The position numbers and the translations under genes were made by a program. Positions 2,510 through 23,885 of a DNA stretch of 23,885 nt are shown here, in pieces. The DNA is from a virus (lineage: Duplodnaviria > Heunggongvirae > Uroviricota > Caudoviricetes), in IMG/VR virus record IMGVR_UViG_3300010262_000019; one strand, given 5' to 3'. The first letter of the stretch is position 1, and every line of letters begins with the position of its first letter. A model generated the notes under the pieces. It saw nothing but the letters and a program-made list of their open reading frames with translations. It was not told where the DNA came from and did no database searches.

Positions 2510-3157
2510 TTATCTTCCGATCGCTAAATAGCCGAAAGCAGCTGTCGTTACTGGCGTTACGCCGCTAAAACCCAGCACTCGTGTCCCTGTTCTGGACCGA
2601 CGTAATGAGTCCTCCTGAACAGTGCCAATGAAAGCCGTTGATGCTGAACTACGTGGCATTGCTATAAAAATCATGCACTGTGATGGAAACGGTATGGGAA
2701 AGGTAATATCTGTGTTTGAAGCTCCAATCGCCCCCATCTGGATAATTGTCCCGTCTGGAAACCTGATCCAGATTGCATCCGTTGAGATTCCCTTTGTCCA
2801 CGAACTCATATCAGGGATCTGATTTGCACCTATGCCAACATCCCTTTTTGCCGCTTCTCCCAAACCAAGGTTTTCGAGAGCCGTTTTCACCGTGCCATCC
2901 GATTTGATATCACCAAACGGATTCTTGCGGCTTAACAGCAGCGCACGAAGCGCGGTAAGCAGCTGGTCGTGCCGCGCCTTCTCCAGACTGGCACCGGATG
3001 CCTCCACCACGCTGCAAAGCTCCTCCTGCAACATGTCAAAGTAGTCATCATCCAGATCGGTGGCAGGCGTGCCGGTCTGGGGGTTACCACGGGTAAAACC
3101 GTTCTTACCCGCGCCGAACTTATCCTTCTGCGCGGTTTTCGTGTCTATACGATGCAT
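2510..3157 (-). CDS. Short tail-fibre protein: constant N-terminal part (about 97 aa, outside the invertible segment) fused to a variable C-terminal part (inside it)
   Basis: 215-aa ORF with GGAG about 8 nt upstream of the ATG at 3157. The crossover site falls in the codons for ...ALENLGLGE..., and the C-terminal end ...[12 protein letters not shown] is fibre-like. Position matches the last structural gene of a Mu-like tail cluster. Confidence 0.7.
2855..2880. repeat. Right crossover site of the invertible segment, located inside the fibre gene
   Basis: ttctcccaaaccAAggttttcgagag: an imperfect palindrome (9 of 12 half-site positions) with a 2-bp core, whose left half is the inverted copy of 995-1006. 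Confidence 0.6.
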
Positions 3158-3160
3158 GAA

Positions 3161-3745
3161 TTACTCCGGATATTTAAAAATTACGTAGGTATGCGACGGG
3201 CAGAGTTTGTTAAGCACACACTCGACAACGGTGTCCCCCCAGATACGCAGTGCGGAATCACAGGGATCGCCACATGTCATCCAGGTGGTGTTGGTGGCGG
3301 CTGGCATGTTGACCTGCCAGTAATACCGCCATTCCGGCGCATTCACCGCGTCAGTACAGGCCGATGAGCAGGTGAACGTGCTTTTGTCGTATCGCGTGAT
3401 GGTGGCATCTGGTCTGCCCAGGGCAGCAAGCTGTGCAAGATAAAAATCCTCGTTGATGCCGCCCGCCAGGTTAACCTTCGCATCCAGCCGTTGCTGACGC
3501 TGGCGAAGGGTCTGTGTCCCTGCGGGAATACATTCATCCGGCAGACCGCACAGACGCTCCCAGCGGTTTATCAGTTCAGTGGTGGTGCGCGGATCCAGCT
3601 CCCGCATCAGGGCATCCGCACGCTGATGAACGCGGGTTAATGACGGTGCCGCACCGGCAATCGCCGGATCGCTGGCTGACCACGCCGGACCGGGGGGCAA
3701 CAGTGCCGACAACAGACGGATGTAATCATCGTTTGTCACGTCCAT
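3161..3745 (-). CDS. Mu gp48-like / YmfQ-like tail protein (DUF2313-type)
   Basis: 194-aa ORF just upstream of the fibre gene on the minus strand; length, position and sequence are consistent with the e14 YmfQ / Mu gp48 family. Confidence 0.6.
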
Positions 3746-4794
3746 GAAATCGTCCCCAGAACCGCCAGTTCATTTTTCGCAATGGAGATATTGTCTGCCG
3801 GTGCAAGCAACTGATGGCTATATTCCCCGTTCGCACCGGAAATCGCTTCACTGATACGCGATACCTTCAGTTCTCCCTGCGGATAACCATCACGCAGAAG
3901 AAACGAACGCAACTCCGCGGTGATGGCGGCTCGTATTTCTGGTGTGTCCGGCGTCACGCGGATATGAAAATCCACCGTATGTGCCACCGGCCTGAATACA
4001 TACAAATCAGAGCCTGCCACCGGGGCCAGTGGCACGATATGTTGTCTTGCTGCCGTTTCCGTTGATTCTTCCGGAATGGGATTAATCAGGTCACTGCTGG
4101 CAATCATCACACCGACAGTTCCCGTTCCCATCCAGTGACGGTATGTCCATGCGCGGGTAATGCCGGGCACTTCTTTAGCCCAGACGACATAGTCCCCGTC
4201 AGCCCCGCCCTGAGGCGTCCAGTAATACCGCTCAATGACGCGGGCGCGCCACGTTTCCAGCTCTTCAGTATCAAATCCGCCTGTAAGGGTGTCAGCCACA
4301 CCGGAAGACGGCAGACCATTCACCGGCGTGACCAGGATTAATGCCGTACCGTCGTCAGCGTTACCGACCGCACCTGCACTTGAGCAGGCGATCGGCACGC
4401 GCAGGACACCACCGGAGCTGGTTGCATCGGCAGTTGCCGTGTACTGAACCAGGTCATCGCGCTGAATAACACTCCCGGCGGTCACCTTCAGGCCATCGCT
4501 GACACCTTCCCAGCGCATATACCCGCTGGCAGCCGTGGCCCCCTTGCGCGGACACCGTTTCATCGCAGCATGTCGCGCCAGCCAGGACTCATCGCACAGG
4601 TCAGGCAGCATGTTCATTGCCAGATAATCGATGTAACCGTAAACCGTATGCAGCGCCGCCGCATACACCTTTGCCCGCACGTCTTCATCCATGCGCCGGA
4701 GCGTGTCGCTGACGTCCAGCCTGGCGAATAAATCGTTACGGAGCATACTGATATTTTCTGCCAGCGTCGGGCGCTGAAATTCACTGTCCGCCAT
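3736..4794 (-). CDS. Baseplate J-like protein (Mu gp47 family)
   Basis: 352-aa ORF in the baseplate cluster between the gp46-like and gp48-like genes; size and position typical of baseplate J/gp47 proteins. Confidence 0.7.
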
Positions 4795-18160: not shown

Positions 18161-19890
18161 AGAATTAAGAGATCATCGTCCGGATCAAGAGATGAGAGGA
18201 AATCGTCAGGTTCTTTGAGCATTGCCCGACCGATCGTCATAATCAGTGCAACCGCACCATCGATTTTGTTTTCCGCCTGCTCCTTGACGGGCTTCACTAA
18301 ATCATCGTTACCAGGCATGTTTTTGCCGACCACATTGCCGATACACCAGGTCATGATGGGATTGCCGTCATGATGAAAGCGCCCCGATTCAATCGCTGCT
18401 TCCAGCTCTTTCATCGGGTCGGACATATTGGCGAAGTTCTGGACGATAGTAACGGGATTCAGGTCTTCATCAGCAAGGTCATGTGACAGCCCGGTCGCCC
18501 CGAAAGGGTCGATGGGTGACTCACTGACCGGGCTGATTTTGTTCGCCGCTTTGGCCTCTTCGAGGATGTAGCGATAATCCACCTCTGCACCATCGGTAAC
18601 GGTCAGGACGCCCATTTCCACCCATTTCTGAAAGCGTTCGGCTGTCCGGCGATCTTCATTTTTCTCGACGCTGTACACCGTGTCATACGGTACCCAGAAG
18701 CGCGGGGCCACACTGTAGTAATGCGTTTTACCGTCAATCTCGCGGGTATAAAGTCGCGCCATGCTGTTCATATCCAGCTTACGCGCCAGGTCAAAGGCCA
18801 GAATGCACGGTTGCCCCTCGAACTGCTCAAGGGTCAGTGATTTATCCTCGCAGCTCTGCCAGCTCACCAGATTAAAATAAGCCGAACGCGCCGACACCCA
18901 GATATTGAGGTGTTTTGTTTTAAAGACGTTTGCCAGACGGGCGTTATTTTTCGCACGCTGCTGCTGACTTAACAAAAATTCGCGATAAACCGACACGCCA
19001 ATATTTGGATTGGCTTTTTCCAGCACCTGCGGGTCGGTCCAGTCGTCACCTTCGTCAACGGTATAGATGATCCCGAACAGTTCATCGTTAGGCACCGAGC
19101 CGTTGAGCATCTCGATGACTTCCCGCCGCTTGTCGTAGCACGGCCCCTCAATGTTGTACCCGGCGGTGGTGATGGCCCACATCAGTGGCTGACGTCGCGC
19201 CCCCATCCCGGTAAGCATCGTGGTGTAAAGCGCATCGGTGGCGTGCTCGTGATATTCATCCACCACCGCACAGTGGGGTGATGAACCATCACCGGGGTTA
19301 CCGATCAGCGGTTCAAACCGCGCGCCATCCTCCGGACGGTTCATGTTTGAAGCGTTAACCTCAATCCCGAACGCTTCCGTCAGCATGGGTGTGCGTTTAC
19401 ACATCAGTCGCGCCGGGCGAAAGACTTCCCACGCCTGTTTCTCTGTCGTGGCACCGGAATACACTTCCGCGCCAAACTCGTTATCACAGGCAAAACAATA
19501 CAGGGCAACACCGGCAGAGATTGCTGATTTGCCGTTCTTACGGGGGATTTCGGTATACACCTCCCGGAAGCGGCGCAACCGGGTGCCTTTATTGACCCAG
19601 CCAAACGCACAGCAGATCACAAATAGCTGCCACGGCTCCAGCGTGATGGGCATCCGTTTGAATGCCCACTCACCCTTGGTGTGCGGCAACAGCTGAATAA
19701 ATTTCGCGGCCCGTTCAGCCAGGTCCTTGTCGAAGCGGTAACGAAACGACTTACTTTTTTCCGCCATCAGGTCATCAAGATGGCGCTGGCAGGCCTGAAT
19801 CACAAACTGGCAGGCCACAATCTTTCCGCGCACGACATCACGGGCATACTGATTGGCAGCATTTACGTTGGGGTAAGATTTCCGGCTCAT
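18157..19890 (-). CDS. Terminase large subunit
   Basis: 577-aa ORF with an ATPase region (...[17 protein letters not shown]..., ...[10 protein letters not shown]...) and a C-terminal nuclease region, immediately after the small terminase gene (ATGA overlap). Confidence 0.9.
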
Positions 19891-20390
19891 GATTCGATGA
19901 TTTTCAGAAACGGGTTAGTGGCTTTCTTCTGCCCCGCCAGGCCAATCAGACGCTGGCGGCTGCTGGGGTCGAGTCCGAGCATTGCCCCCGTGCTGCTCAT
20001 CTCGGACTCCTGTTCTTTTTTGGCGGTCAGCTCCGGATTTTTGACCATACCGCCCATTGCACCGGTGATGGTGTTGCCCTGTCTGGCAATATTTTTCACG
20101 GCACGTCGCCAGAACTCGTAGGCCACGCACCACCGCTCAAGCACCGCGAGGTCAGTCACGCACAGCAGGCCCTGACCGCAGAGTTCTTTAGTTGTCAGTT
20201 GCCACATGATCGTAGCGAGAGGGAGATCTTCTTCAGCGAACCACTCCGGTGGCTCAACACCTTTGATGGGCGTAAAAACAGGTTCATCTTTATTCAGGGC
20301 TCGCTTGCCGGGGTTTCCGGCCAGCGCCTTGCGCGCCGTTGGCTTGGGGCGACGCCCGGAACGCCCCGCCGTTCCAGCCATATGCGGCAC
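19887..20390 (-). CDS. Terminase small subunit (P27-like family)
   Basis: 167-aa ORF directly upstream of the large terminase gene, with AGGAG 8 nt upstream of its ATG. Confidence 0.75.
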
Positions 20391-20507: not shown

Positions 20508-20858
20508 TCACTTTAACCGTTCACGGGCCGTCTTCGCCTTATGGCAGGGCCAGCACAGACTCTGCAGATTACTGTCGGCATCAGTGCCGCCATGCGCTTT
20601 AGGGATGATGTGGTCAACGGTTTTCGCCTCGCGCACCACACCGGCACGCAAACACAACTGACACAGGCCTTTGTCACGCTTCAGTACTCGCACCCGGATA
20701 CCGTCCCACTTCGAACCATAACCACGCTGATGGCGGGACTGGCCCGACTTGTATTGCTTCCAGCCCTCGCTTTTGTGGCTTTCGCAGTAGCCTGACGGGT
20801 CAGTCGTGGTATTGCGGCAGCCGCGAACACGGCAGGCTTTTGGGATTCGAGGAGGCAT
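20508..20858 (-). CDS. HNH endonuclease (terminase-associated)
   Basis: 116-aa ORF with an N-terminal Cys cluster (CRVRGC...C.SH) and the HNH core ...VDHIIPKAHGGTDADSNLQSLCWPCHKAKT...; it lies immediately upstream of the terminase genes. Confidence 0.85.
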   Translation of the reverse strand: MPPRIPKACRVRGCRNTTTDPSGYCESHKSEGWKQYKSGQSRHQRGYGSKWDGIRVRVLKRDKGLCQLCLRAGVVREAKTVDHIIPKAHGGTDADSNLQSLCWPCHKAKTARERLK

Positions 20859-20884: not shown

Positions 20885-21157
20885 CTATTTGCCTGCTGCC
20901 AGCAAAGCGTTACGGCGCATCTCGATACTTCGAATTCCCGCTTTGTCAATATTACATTGTCCCAACGCTGACAACAGACTCACATTCAACTCCAGACTGG
21001 CACCATACGTCAGCGGATTGGGTATAAACGGTACAGGAGTATCAGAAGTCAGGCTGGCTGGCAGTGGTGCCACCGGAACGCTCACGTAAACCGTTCGCGA
21101 ATTTCCGCAACCGGTCAGCAGCGGCAGCAGGCACAGGACGTGAAGCACAATCATCAT
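20885..21157 (-). CDS. Rz1-like o-spanin (outer-membrane lipoprotein)
   Basis: Read in the +1 frame relative to Rz, starting inside Rz. The preferred start MMIVLHVLCLLPLLTGC gives a lipoprotein signal with an LLTGC lipobox, and the mature part is Pro-rich. Confidence 0.6.
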   Translation of the reverse strand: MMIVLHVLCLLPLLTGCGNSRTVYVSVPVAPLPASLTSDTPVPFIPNPLTYGASLELNVSLLSALGQCNIDKAGIRSIEMRRNALLAAGK

Positions 21158-21434
21158 CCGCAACAGCCACTTTGATATCTTCCTGGGTTCTCTGTGACTC
21201 CAGTGCGATCTGCTGTTTTGCATGTTGATTCGCCTCCTGAATGATGTTCGTTATTGCCATAGTTCGCAGAACATTCGCGGTGATAGCCTCAGTAGAATCA
21301 GCTCGCTGTTCCGCAGCGTCAGCACGCTTCTGTTCCTCCAGAAACTTTCCGTGGTAGTGATTAGCTGACCAGATAAGACCACCAGCAATACAAGCAATAA
21401 ACGTTAAAATGAGCGCCCAATAACTCATCTTCAT
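21042..21434 (-). CDS. Rz-like i-spanin
   Basis: 130-aa ORF with one N-terminal transmembrane helix (YWALILTFIACIAGGLIW) and a charged helical periplasmic domain; it follows the endolysin gene with overlapping start and stop. Confidence 0.7.
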   Translation of the reverse strand: MKMSYWALILTFIACIAGGLIWSANHYHGKFLEEQKRADAAEQRADSTEAITANVLRTMAITNIIQEANQHAKQQIALESQRTQEDIKVAVADDDCASRPVPAAAADRLRKFANGLRERSGGTTASQPDF

Positions 21435-22045
21435 ACCAGCAGCGCCGCCCGCGCCTTGTTGTATCGAACCTTACGATCCTCAATACCGTTCAGACCGCCG
21501 TTAATGATGCGCGTAACACGATTAATATCAGCACCGTAGACCATGCAGCCTTTAGAGGTGTAGAACCATGCAGCTGAGCGCGCAGCCTGTAGCTCCTGCT
21601 CCAGTTGTTCAGGTGAGGTCACCAGATCTAACTTCAGCGCCGCGCCACAGATGCGATAATTATGAAGGCCAGTGATTTGAATTAATCCTCTACCACGATA
21701 TTTCCAGCCATCACCGGGTGCTTTGTTACCCAGTCGGTTGCTATACACCAGATTGGCAATAGCATCCTGACGAGCTGCATGTCCGGATGTTCTGCCAAGG
21801 GCATCAGCCTGCTGCTGTGTGATCCTCTTTCCGAACGTCGCCACCAGCGCAGATGGTGTGTAGTTAAAATTTTCAACTACGGCGCTAAACCCCATCGACT
21901 CATGGCCTACCTGAGCGATAAACATTGCCTGATCCGCTGGTGCTGTAATGCCGAATTCCTTCATCGCCGCATCAATGTGCGGATACCAGCGCGCAGCCAG
22001 CCCGGCGCTAATACCAGCCGCCTTTTGAAATAATTGTTGGTTCAT
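21431..22045 (-). CDS. Endolysin, glycoside hydrolase family 19 (chitinase-like) type
   Basis: 204-aa ORF with ...FIAQVGHESMGF... and ...YRGRGLIQITGLHNY..., motifs typical of GH19 endolysins; it sits between the membrane proteins and the spanins. Confidence 0.8.
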   Translation of the reverse strand: MNQQLFQKAAGISAGLAARWYPHIDAAMKEFGITAPADQAMFIAQVGHESMGFSAVVENFNYTPSALVATFGKRITQQQADALGRTSGHAARQDAIANLVYSNRLGNKAPGDGWKYRGRGLIQITGLHNYRICGAALKLDLVTSPEQLEQELQAARSAAWFYTSKGCMVYGADINRVTRIINGGLNGIEDRKVRYNKARAALLV

Positions 22046-22326
22046 TAGTGCCTCAGATGATCAACCAGACGTGCAACGTTGCCTCTGACGGCCACCAGCA
22101 CGGAAAGAAAAATAGTGTTCGCCACGATAATGGGCCATGAGGAATGAGGATAAATCCCACAGAGATAGGCCAACGGAACAGCACTGTATGTAACAGTAAT
22201 CAGCCAGGCTAAACGTGAAACCCAAGGACGATGCCGCGAATCACCACGACGATAAAACATCAGAGTAATAACAACACAAGCACATAACAGCGCATTTATA
22301 GTTGCTGTCGGGTCATTTAGCTCCAC
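22045..22326 (-). CDS. Small membrane protein of the lysis cassette (putative holin or antiholin component)
   Basis: 93-aa ORF with two to three hydrophobic helices, overlapping the upstream membrane-protein gene by 14 nt and abutting the endolysin start. Confidence 0.45.
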   Translation of the reverse strand: MELNDPTATINALLCACVVITLMFYRRGDSRHRPWVSRLAWLITVTYSAVPLAYLCGIYPHSSWPIIVANTIFLSVLVAVRGNVARLVDHLRH

Positions 22327-22699
22327 CTGAACCTCCCCGGCGCGTTATGAGCGCCACCAGCGAGCCGATATCCTGATTATTCAGGAACGTCAGGATTTTA
22401 ACGGCTAAAGCAGAGACGATTACGGCACCAATAGCATCCAGAGGTTTATCACTGTATCCGGTCAAGTTCGCCAGCTTGGAGCCAACCAACCCAGAGCAAA
22501 GAATCCCGGCAATATATGACACGATAAAATATGCCAGTCGGCGCGATGCACTCAGATCTGCTGCTGTTGCTATGTAGAATACAGCCCCTGCAAATGCGCC
22601 AAATACAACGCCGTAATCAGTTCCGGTCAGCAGTCCATAAACACTGGCACCCGTCAGGGCACCACCAGCCAGCCCAGTACCGGAAATCGGATCGGACAT
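22313..22699 (-). CDS. Putative holin (glycine-rich multi-pass membrane protein)
   Basis: 128-aa ORF with GAGGGGG 5 nt upstream of the ATG and several Gly/Ala-rich hydrophobic segments; it is the first gene of the lysis cassette. Confidence 0.5.
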   Translation of the reverse strand: MSDPISGTGLAGGALTGASVYGLLTGTDYGVVFGAFAGAVFYIATAADLSASRRLAYFIVSYIAGILCSGLVGSKLANLTGYSDKPLDAIGAVIVSALAVKILTFLNNQDIGSLVALITRRGGSGGAK

Positions 22700-22844
22700 T
22701 TAGCCCCCTCTTAATTGCTGTTGGTCCTCTCAGATATGAGGGGAAGGGATCTTAATGACAGTTTGTCTATTATTTCAGACAGACTAAAACCTGATTACAT
22801 ATCAGAAGAAGCAGCAGAATTTCTCCGCTCACTAAAACTTTCAG

Positions 22845-23102
22845 TCAAACACTACCCTGTTGATTCTTTCTCAGAGGCGGACTTGACTCCCAGGGGAAAC
22901 TCAACTTTCCGTTAAAACCACCAGCAGACATTCGTTCAATTTCCACAGAAATATCACTGAGCCGTTCTTCAAGCTCTGCTTTTTCTTTTACCAGACGGTT
23001 ATAGCGGCTTAGATGAAGCTTTTGCTGCTCCAGCCAGTCTTCAAGCTGTTCAACAGTCATACCAGGGTTAAAAAAATATGGCTGCTGCTTTTCGTCCTGC
23101 AT
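22845..23102 (-). CDS. Hypothetical small protein (85 aa) between the Q-like gene and the lysis cassette
   Basis: Preferred start MQDEKQQPYFFNPG... has GGAGG 8 nt upstream and lies immediately after the candidate terminator; the longer 108-aa ORF in the track would span that terminator. The product is helical and charged, and is not a recognisable lysis protein. Confidence 0.5.
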   Translation of the reverse strand: MQDEKQQPYFFNPGMTVEQLEDWLEQQKLHLSRYNRLVKEKAELEERLSDISVEIERMSAGGFNGKLSFPWESSPPLRKNQQGSV

Positions 23103-23115
23103 TATTGACCTCCAG

Positions 23116-23142
23116 AAAAGCAAAAACCCCGCCGAAGCGAGG
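23116..23142 (-). terminator. Candidate tR'-like rho-independent terminator downstream of the late promoter
   Basis: Minus-strand RNA ccucgc-uucg-gcgggg (6-bp stem including one G-U pair, UUCG tetraloop) followed by UUUUUGCUUUU. Confidence 0.5.
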
Positions 23143-23192
23143 TTTGTTATGATTTCGTTAACGGCAGACATACAAAGCCCATCGTTAGGAGA

Positions 23193-23221
23193 ACTCTAAC
23201 CAGATTTTTTGAAAAATACAA
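23193..23221 (-). promoter_or_regulatory. Candidate late promoter (PR'-like) just downstream of the Q-like gene
   Basis: On the minus strand TTGTAT, a 17-bp spacer, then TAGAGT, about 70 nt upstream of the candidate terminator. Both hexamers match consensus only partially, but the layout Q-promoter-terminator-late genes is that of lambdoid phages. Confidence 0.3.
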
Positions 23222-23252
23222 GAATCATGTCGCTATCTTCGGCGAAAATCAT

Positions 23253-23885
23253 TTATCTCGTCACTTTTCTTAATTGCGCCTCAGCATATGCTTCTTCCTG
23301 CCAGCACTTTGTCACCAGTTTATCAATGACATCTGCATATCCTTTGTACCACTGATAATCCGTCAGGTCTGGTACCAGCTTCTGGACATGATGCCGCGCC
23401 AGTGTGGTTGGTAAACGGCTAAACCGGTTTCCATTGCAACGCCCACAAATCTTATAAACAGGCGTGCCATGAAGCCGGGTCCTTTTTTCATCCAGGACAA
23501 TACCTTTACCCTTACACCCTCTGCACGCTGTGCTGACTTCTCCCTTACCATGACAATGCTGACATAGTTCCTTCACCCACTCTTCCTTGATAACAGATTC
23601 CCCGCTTCTGGAGTGTTTCACCACCTCGCGCAATACATTATGAAATCCCGTACCTGCACAATGCTCACAGCGAGCCTTACTTGCCGCAGACCTGGAATAA
23701 TCAGCAAAAGCAAAATTCACAAGGTAAGGGATGATCTGTAACCGGGTTTCTTCACTCAATTTGTTCAATGCCGGGTTATCCAGTGCCATCGCGTAATTGA
23801 GCAGACCTTCAATCGCAAACTGAGGCTCCTGAACACCAACTTTTGCCAGGAATAAGGCAAACCCAAGCGGTGCTTTCGACTGCAC
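23253..23885 (-). CDS. Q-like late-gene antitermination protein (5' end may lie beyond the window edge)
   Basis: The ORF runs to the window edge. It contains four Cys pairs (CEHCAGTG, CQHCHGKG, CRGCKGKG, CGRCNGNR), i.e. a zinc-binding cluster, and lies directly upstream of the promoter/terminator pair and the lysis genes. Confidence 0.55.
   Translation of the reverse strand: MQSKAPLGFALFLAKVGVQEPQFAIEGLLNYAMALDNPALNKLSEETRLQIIPYLVNFAFADYSRSAASKARCEHCAGTGFHNVLREVVKHSRSGESVIKEEWVKELCQHCHGKGEVSTACRGCKGKGIVLDEKRTRLHGTPVYKICGRCNGNRFSRLPTTLARHHVQKLVPDLTDYQWYKGYADVIDKLVTKCWQEEAYAEAQLRKVTR

Follow-up and report, generated by a model that had tools for sequence, protein, structure and literature searches.

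The 23,885 nt stretch of viral DNA analysed here (the window; IMG/VR record IMGVR_UViG_3300010262_000019, Caudoviricetes) carries an 85 aa open reading frame (ORF) between the gene for the antiterminator Q and the lysis genes. On balance, the window appears to hold the orphaned half of a conserved module of two convergent, overlapping genes, the other half of which has been deleted. The anatomy and evolutionary history of this pair are very probably as described below; the functional coupling that we propose between the two genes is put forward as a tentative suggestion. The novelty lies in recognising the conserved convergent pair and its interleaved signals, of which the literature searched gave no description. 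Annotation pipelines call one of two overlapping genes, hence the pairing has gone unnoticed: the records of phage ST64B and of two Klebsiella phages (L001-L003) list the small ORF and leave a convergent gene of around 145 aa uncalled, in E. coli TUM1881, the only chromosome of this species examined, RefSeq/PGAP does the reverse, calling the convergent gene as a member of the ECs1072 family and leaving out the small ORF.

Translation of the strand opposite and downstream of the ORF revealed one frame that is open and conserved in all the divergent homologues. Extended to its full length, this frame represents a gene of approximately 145-150 aa, convergent with the ORF and overlapping its 3' end by 71-110 nt, which ST64B and many prophages of Klebsiella, Citrobacter, Enterobacter and E. 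coli carry intact. The ST64B protein (L001, 2688-3122) starts MSNYSDLFQIIK, ends ENSVFL and matches both NF033230 ('ECs1072 family phage-associated protein'; E value 1.7e-49) and phrog_5286. The median ratio of non-synonymous to synonymous substitution rates (dN/dS) of this partner gene is 0.13, and AlphaFold2 gives a confident, all-alpha model of its product (predicted local distance difference test score, pLDDT, 86.8; predicted template modelling score, pTM, 0.84). A conserved palindrome or hairpin surrounds the Shine-Dalgarno (SD) sequence of the partner, approximately 15-60 nt upstream of the start codon (L062, L064, L067, L082 and others), with arms that covary between lineages (CCCCGTTTGATAT/ATATCAAACGGGG; CCTGTCTGAT/ATCAGACAAGG; CCTGTCTGGT/ACCAGACAAGG); it could represent an RNA structure or an operator, and is absent from the window because of a deletion of around 390 nt.

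Only the 3' part of the partner gene remains in the window. An earlier reading of the region, made from the sequence alone, described a 145 nt AT-rich spacer between the ORF and the holin gene; it missed both that every gene in this part of the window lies on the minus strand, as indicated by ORF calls and profile searches, and that a conserved frame runs along the plus strand of the 'spacer'. The length of the interval (22700-22844, between the ORF stop and the holin start at 22699) and its composition (40% G+C, compared with 52% for the window) were correctly given, but it is not a spacer, being composed of around 95 nt of partner pseudogene and around 50 nt of holin leader. Together with the 3' end of the ORF, its plus strand corresponds to the C-terminal 60 positions only of the ECs1072 family. 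The plus strand frame at 22715-22915 matches NF033230 with an E value of 2.1e-9 and 37.6 bits, set against a curated cut-off of 70 bits and the 150-168 bits of its relatives; a complete gene of this family encodes around 142-150 aa and has a start codon. The remnant overlaps the last 71 nt of the ORF and is 71% identical to the intact proteins over the aligned part, whilst having no ATG start codon, SD sequence or promoter in the window and changes at three near-invariant residues (F96S, P121S and W135L). Given the score below the cut-off, the partial coverage, the missing start codon and SD sequence and these substitutions, the window holds a pseudogene remnant.

Megablast boundaries mark the limits of the deletion: the match to ST64B stops at 22750 and that to the holin module at 22745. 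Relative to L068, in which an intact pair is followed by the same holin leader, approximately 390 nt are missing from the window, comprising the first 85-90 or so codons of the partner, its upstream region and a terminator on the late strand. Most E. coli copies (the SKA5 type) additionally lack the 66 nt from 22779 to 22844, through a deletion between 6 bp direct repeats (CTGAAA) that has taken a further 22 codons of the remnant.

The interleaving of the two genes extends to a transcription signal. A terminator scan of ST64B identified an intrinsic terminator on the partner strand inside the ORF (L001, 2623-2643), where the reverse complement of ORF codons 39-48, encoding KEKAALEERL, forms a GC-rich hairpin (AGCCGCTC..GAGCGGCT) followed by TTTTTCTTT, with folding energies of -12 to -24 kcal/mol. 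This hairpin is found in every unique sequence outside the window clade, nearly all of which have an intact partner, and accounts for part of the near-invariance of KEKAALEERL in them. Across the window clade, each of the 16 unique sequences has a 3' arm changed from GAGCGGCT to CTCTGCT, resulting in the substitution A43E, and lacks the hairpin; such decay is expected because the antisense gene is dead.

The history of the pair can be followed from both sides. Amongst the 85 or so loci found through the ORF, the partner is intact in 32, truncated at or near the window junction (residues 83-88 onward) in 53 and independently disrupted in two others. In the other direction, each of the 80 loci retrieved with the partner has a homologue of the ORF convergent with it, intact in 71 and interrupted by nonsense or frameshift mutations at several independent positions in nine; independent nonsense mutations (W23*, Q27* and K41*) or frameshifts beside an intact partner occur in the Klebsiella-type loci L101, L102, L111, L119, L140, L149 and L153. 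The convergent overlap and the upstream terminator are kept even in an E. coli pair of 78 aa and 156 aa that has diverged to around 40-60% identity and follows a Q of the lambda type.

The small ORF itself had been correctly recognised as an 85 aa gene with a strong ribosome binding site: it is a minus strand ORF starting with ATG, 6 nt behind the sequence GGAGG. Residues 1-84 align with positions 1-84 of the 85 in the phrog_3501 profile, so that the profile search suggested by the earlier reading found a full-length family match and no homology to a lysis regulator. The protein has a conserved N-terminal QQPYFFNPGM, a coiled-coil helix (residues 17-60), a GKLSFPW motif and a variable tail. 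Its homologues form 60 clusters at 90% identity, all labelled hypothetical; the named ones come from Enterobacteriaceae (one Pectobacterium). Only 33 proteins among 1.8 billion representatives were matched by the family profile, and the family is small and without detectable distant relatives. Comparison of the interval across related prophages, also suggested by that reading, found the ORF conserved as coding sequence, with a median dN/dS of 0.21 across codon-aligned homologues. In the parts not overlapped by the partner, the ratio of non-synonymous to synonymous differences per site (pN/pS) is 0.07 for residues 1-16, which contain the KQQPYFFNPGMT motif, and 0.31 for the helix, with synonymous sites near saturation in both (pS around 0.6). 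The C-terminal tail, which the partner overlaps, has a pN/pS of 0.74 and a lowered pS. The start, SD sequence and length are conserved among homologues, and the YFF codons vary synonymously (TTT/TTC). The G+C content is 45%, compared with 52% for the window. Judged by these patterns of sequence evolution, the ORF is a real protein-coding prophage gene, uncharacterised though already catalogued; the literature searched contained nothing functional on either Sb50, its ST64B homologue, or ECs1072.

AlphaFold2 predicts a single long amphipathic helix (residues 17-60; mean pLDDT 77.6) with an a/d heptad pattern and unstructured ends, and the protein is highly charged, bearing out its earlier description as helical and charged. 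There was no match to it in Pfam, NCBIfam or PADLOC (for the ORF family, none at E<=1 in the last of these), and fold and Protein Data Bank searches returned only coiled-coil noise. Nor did Pfam, PHROG, profile and structure searches yield any match to a holin, antiholin or known lysis regulator, again as the earlier reading had it. The single amphipathic helix argues that the protein is not a holin; two real holin genes lie downstream.

Three other features of the ORF were considered and rejected. A 108 aa version starting from the ATG at 23171 would begin inside the terminated leader, and it is the 85 aa start that is conserved. The run of seven T residues at codons 9-11 (TAT TTT TTT) is interrupted by TTC in the homologues of L068, L070, L077, L080, L082 and L084, and a -1 shift there would meet TAA at once, so it does not represent a programmed frameshift site. 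An 8 bp hairpin around the SD sequence and AUG (23086-23093 / 23115-23122) is apparently not kept as a pairing in divergent upstream sequences.

On the minus strand, the stop codon of Q (23253) and the ORF are separated by a stretch containing TTGTAT-17 nt-TAGAGT-TCTCCT-AACGATGGG, to be compared with TTGACT-17-TAAATT-TGACTC-AACGATGGG at the lambda late promoter PR', such that AACGATGGG lies at the same distance from the -10 box in both. In lambda PR', an element of this type is the site of sigma70-dependent pausing and Q loading. The promoter in the window is treated as putative because its match falls below the threshold of the consensus scan. A strong intrinsic terminator resembling lambda tR' lies around 40 nt downstream, with a U-tract that leads directly into the SD sequence of the ORF; without Q, transcription is predicted to stop there, leaving a leader RNA of about 68 nt. 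The block of hairpin, U-tract and SD sequence recurs in 23 of 30 distinct sequences upstream of homologues, with compensatory changes in the stem (CCTCGC/GCGGGG, CCCTGCC/GGCGGGG and CCCCGCC/GGCGGGG); two of the remainder have a hairpin around 35 nt further upstream, and five Klebsiella variants have a tRNA-Thr inserted. With a PF03589 Q, the sequence TTGTAT-17-TAGAGT-6-AACGATGGG and a terminator all present, the region has the composition of a lambda-type Q-dependent late unit, the activity of which is predicted, and the ORF is the first cistron behind this apparently Q-controlled promoter and terminator. Lying behind tR', it should be translated only from Q-antiterminated transcripts. The strong terminator precedes the ORF rather than following it, and a promoter scan found no promoter-like site between tR' and the ORF such as a moron with its own promoter would have. 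No Rfam family reached its gathering score anywhere in the window; the sub-threshold matches, to istR and others, all fell on the terminator and leader (23110-23230) and were taken as chance. The suggestion in the sequence-only reading of an accessory gene expressed with the late transcript is thus upheld as regards coding (dN/dS around 0.2) and position behind tR', but the gene is probably half of a two-gene module rather than a free-standing moron.

The sequences show how the two genes are built, that both are under constraint and where the signals lie; from there on, we infer the following mechanism. In a lysogen, the partner would be transcribed from its own putative promoter, with the late transcript being halted at tR'. 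On induction, Q-modified RNA polymerase would pass tR' and the 85 aa protein would be made, whilst late transcription running head-on through the partner gene would shut it off through transcriptional interference and antisense pairing, following the logic of noncontiguous operons and excludons. In such an arrangement, a gene inside or facing an operon on the opposite strand has a transcript that overlaps that of the operon; the 71-110 nt coding overlap and the antisense terminator within the ORF may point to this in relatives, whilst the window has only relics. The 85 aa protein would be a soluble coiled-coil oligomer that, through its strongly constrained N-terminal peptide motif, most likely binds and neutralises the partner protein or its target, or otherwise cooperates with either, as the phage grows lytically. 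The orphan ORF of the window may be kept against the partner proteins of other prophages, or be slowly decaying. A more specific version, which we consider speculative and unlikely, is that the 85 aa and ECs1072-family proteins constitute an unrecognised immunity and counter-immunity pair of enterobacterial lambdoid phages. The ECs1072-family protein made in lysogens would then hamper incoming phages; head-on Q-dependent transcription would silence its gene, and the first late protein would neutralise its product. Orphan copies of the ORF would act as stand-alone counter-defence against resident prophages with an intact pair.

Several observations weigh against a coupled module. The nonsense and frameshift alleles of the ORF beside an intact partner, in seven to nine of 80 prophages, imply that the partner is not lethal without the ORF, at least in lysogens. 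The ORF is also intact in around 100 E. coli genomes that lack the partner, where it may have an independent role. As the genes physically overlap, their co-inheritance is partly trivial and only suggestive of a functional link. Within the window clade, polymorphism in the ORF lies mostly in the tail and amounts to five synonymous and 13 non-synonymous sites, with N-terminal frameshifts in a further four loci (L056-L059); this is compatible with relaxed constraint, the sites being too sparse to decide. Furthermore, the partner family matched no PADLOC model at E<=1, the searches run matched neither protein to Pfam or to any solved or predicted structure, and a scan of the ST64B locus identified no promoter for the partner gene.

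Some of these points would sit well with the 85 aa protein being an independent, moron-like late accessory acting on a host target, for instance in host takeover, anti-defence or cell division control, and linked to the partner by overlap only. We regard this as somewhat unlikely. The ORF does persist intact without its partner, both in the window clade and in those E. coli genomes, and it occupies a proven cargo hotspot, whilst strong constraint on its N-terminal motif is as expected of a short linear binding motif. Yet no lineage was found in which the ORF lacks at least a remnant of the partner, or the partner lacks the ORF; the pairing holds even at around 40-60% identity behind a different Q family, and the terminator of the partner is built into the codons of the ORF. 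The context survey, comprising 80 IMG/VR loci plus phage records, bears on the idea of a cytoplasmic regulator of lysis timing, an antiholin cofactor like RIII of phage T4, which appears quite improbable. A small, soluble, helical protein that is encoded directly upstream of the window holin and would be made together with it could suit such a role. Across the survey, though, homologues of the ORF precede at least four unrelated holin families, as cassettes with Phage_holin_8 and 3_7, Phage_holin_3_1, Phage_holin_3_3 or the P21-type pinholin Phage_holin_2_1, accompanied by GH19, lysozyme or other endolysins. The distance to the holin gene ranges from 79 nt to more than 2 kb, at times with tRNA arrays, genes resembling those of transposases or insertion sequences, or the partner in between. 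Such variety argues against a holin-specific lysis regulator, as there is no co-inheritance with one cognate holin, and the protein resembles no family of lysis proteins; the constant neighbour of the ORF is the start of the late transcript and not any holin.

It is very unlikely that the ORF encodes no functional protein, its frame being held open only by the tR'-like terminator, the SD sequence, the antisense gene and the terminator of the latter. The C-terminal third, overlapped by the partner, is indeed nearly neutral at the protein level, codons 39-48 double as the antisense terminator, and nonsense alleles occur; nevertheless residues 1-38, which overlap no identified feature, are the most constrained part of all, with saturated synonymous sites, and the conserved start codon, SD sequence and length, along with the synonymous variation of the YFF codons, likewise speak for a protein. 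Least credible of all is a classical toxin-antitoxin system with the 85 aa protein as antitoxin. Two small adjacent genes, one of them encoding a small helical protein, would superficially resemble one, but the genes are convergent and not co-transcribed as in a type II system, the putative antitoxin, placed after a terminator, would not be expressed in lysogens, an intact partner is found alongside nonsense alleles of the ORF, and neither a toxin-antitoxin nor a PADLOC family was matched.

The view of the interval between Q and the lysis genes as a cargo site is borne out by relatives. Behind the same Q, phage 2H10 carries cspB/cspF and SfV carries orf47/orf48, and other relatives have uspF or tRNA arrays in the interval; with such differing cargo behind the same Q, this is a true cargo hotspot. 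The antiterminators ahead of homologues of the ORF are themselves varied, including PF03589 proteins (two sub-types around 37% identical), the Pfam-less Sb49 type, PF06530 and DUF1133, and a lambda-type PF06323 Q precedes the very divergent E. coli homologue. Further hotspot cargo is seen in L068, in which a 407 aa ORF with the P-loop motif GDRGIGKSS (2659-3882) lies between Q and the small ORF. A tRNA-Thr is located around 70 nt upstream of the ORF in L074, L085, L087, L088 and L089, and tRNA arrays 0.5-1 kb downstream in L060, L077 and L082; the kinds found beside the ORF are Thr, Met, Phe and Gly. These recall the tRNA genes carried downstream of Q by Shiga toxin (Stx) phages. No tRNA genes were detected within the window by a tRNA scan.

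The interval downstream of the ORF had also been described as containing an imperfect palindrome, at about 22744-22771. This was misplaced by around 16 nt, the arms, of 9 nt with one mismatch, being at 22760-22768 and 22777-22785. An equal or better palindrome occurs in 19% of shuffles of the interval, the window has a mean of 0.49 such repeats per 145 nt, and the repeat finder did not pick up this one at seed 6. It falls where the dead partner gene encodes its conserved SLFIISDRL motif, and is chance-level coding sequence; one arm is gone in most E. coli relatives because of the 66 nt deletion. A structured RNA in the interval was also rejected, as its folding is no better than that of shuffled sequences (z = -0.84). 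The holin leader that makes up the rest of the interval contains a different inverted repeat, eight of the nine positions of which are complementary, and which would pair CCCCUCAUA with the holin SD sequence UAAGAGGGG; this repeat may sequester the SD sequence, as a translational brake on holin synthesis. The leader is common to L068, Chris1, Gifsy-1 and E. coli prophages without the small ORF.

Table 1. Features between the lysis cassette and Q in the window.
Feature	Position	Strand	Basis or remark
Antiterminator Q, 3' part, cut by the window end	23253-23885	-	PF03589 Antiterm, E 2.8e-45; phrog_127
Putative PR'-like late promoter: -35 TTGTAT (23220-23215), 17 nt spacer, -10 TAGAGT (23198-23193)	23193-23220	-	Geometry as in lambda PR'
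AACGATGGG: predicted transcript start and sigma70-dependent promoter-proximal pause (Q loading site)	23178-23186	-	9-mer identical to lambda
Predicted tR'-like intrinsic terminator: stem 23145-23124, U-tract 23123-23114	23114-23145	-	Terminator scan
SD sequence GGAGG of the 85 aa ORF	23109-23113	-	6 nt ahead of ATG (23102); abuts terminator U-tract
85 aa late gene (phrog_3501; ST64B Sb50 family)	22845-23102	-	phrog_3501, E 2.2e-53; 60 homologue clusters; dN/dS 0.21; AlphaFold2 model
Degraded relic of the partner terminator, antisense in ORF codons 39-48	22960-22989	+	Window clade has AGCCGTTCTTCAAGCTCTGCT, no stem
ECs1072-family C-terminal remnant (around 55 codons)	22750-22915	+	NF033230 profile positions 81-140 of 142; tblastn query 83-143
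Deletion junction (TCCC), partner remnant / holin leader	22746-22749		Megablast boundaries
Holin leader with SD sequence AAGAGGGGG; inverted repeat 22705-22713 / 22735-22743	22700-22745	-	Repeat finder; alignment with L068
Holin (Phage_holin_8), first gene of the lysis cassette	22313-22699	-	PF16931, E 1.2e-34
Holin 2 (Phage_holin_3_7)	22045-22326	-	Profile match
GH19 endolysin	21431-22045	-	Profile match
Rz spanin	21042-21434	-	Profile match

Salmonella phage 118970_sal3 and Escherichia phage SKA5 match the region at 97-99% identity, with the Q of the former being 97% identical to that of the window, and at least 80% of the region is matched in 101 of 5426 complete E. coli genomes. Beyond the features in Table 1, the Rz gene is overlapped in another frame by a minus strand ORF (20885-21223) that has an LLTGC lipoprotein-like motif and runs beyond the Rz stop; it resembles an Rz1 of the overlapped and not of the embedded kind. 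Next comes an HNH endonuclease gene (20508-20858), ahead of an ORF (19887-20390) that looks like a small terminase subunit, both assignments being putative.

For the window itself the outcome is modest, in that it holds an orphaned late gene and a pseudogene remnant, and no regulatory spacer. In its relatives, the 500 nt interval that appears 'empty' in ST64B contains a gene under strong constraint, and the layout, with a putatively Q-controlled gene facing an antisense gene whose terminator lies in the codons of the first, would make a compact switch between lysogenic and lytic expression. Its architecture is shared with two recently described prophage systems of immunity and anti-immunity, thereby naming two small proteins for direct testing.

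The closest relatives of the ORF are the phrog_3501 members of Salmonella phages ST64B (Sb50) and 118970_sal3, Escherichia phage SKA5, and Klebsiella phages KPP5665-2, KpF5 and the ST-OXA48 phi series. Identity to the window ORF is 75-96% in those from Salmonella and E. coli and 61-66% in those from Klebsiella. As in the window, these genes are placed after Q and a terminator, and all encode hypothetical proteins; ST64B and the Klebsiella phages have an intact partner that their annotation leaves out, and in the window, 118970_sal3 and SKA5 the partner is truncated. The namesake ECs1072 (now ECs_5703) of E. coli O157:H7 Sakai prophage Sp4 (L092, 19361-19816) is no more than a distant relative of the partner family described above (hhalign E 2e-4), and lies antisense between cII-like and replication genes rather than after Q. 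A 2.1-fold change of ECs1072 in a growth transition, listed in a 2007 microarray table (PMC2241611), suggests that it is transcribed in uninduced cultures. The plus strand ORF convergent with it carries SPHIWRGGLSDVELAEWL, resembling QPYFFNPGMTVEQLEDWL of the small ORF; this similarity is not significant (E 0.07) and the convergent ORF has no relatives in the phage collection, hence a second pair at this locus was rejected.

In its signals, the window resembles the PR'-qut-6S RNA-tR' region of lambda, with the same promoter geometry, an identical AACGATGGG and an intrinsic terminator of the kind overridden by Q. The leader is shorter, at approximately 68 nt compared with 194 nt, and unlike lambda, a translated gene starts 6 nt after an SD sequence abutting the terminator; Q itself, as a PF03589 protein, belongs to a family other than that of lambda Q. 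The RIII protein of T4 is a small cytoplasmic antiholin cofactor, phage-encoded, soluble, helical and expressed with the lysis genes; the 85 aa protein is alike in size, but there is no homology between them and the ORF is not linked to one holin family.

The nearest parallels in working are two prophage systems. In phi80, the immunity gene of the Tai/Ati system is antisense to the Q-dependent late operon, and experiments showed that Q expression lowers its product and that a small late protein binds and inhibits the immunity protein (PMC11364771). Tha/Ith of the S. aureus phage 80alpha comprises a prophage immunity gene and its cognate inhibitor in a noncontiguous operon (PMC11087260). In both, gene and inhibitor are mutually antisense and expressed in mutually exclusive phases (PMC11364771, PMC11087260). 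The binding role suggested for the 85 aa protein is drawn by analogy with these systems. The geometry differs, the phi80 pair being divergent and after the lysis genes, whereas the pair described here is convergent, with a 3' overlap and an embedded terminator, and precedes them; hhalign gave probabilities of 0.4% and 0.5% for homology to TaiEcA and AtiEcA. The resemblance is hence one of working and not of family membership: as in Tai/Ati and Tha/Ith, one gene runs counter to a phage operon and has a small gene of the operon as its neighbour, and the logic of mutually exclusive expression proposed for the pair is the same.

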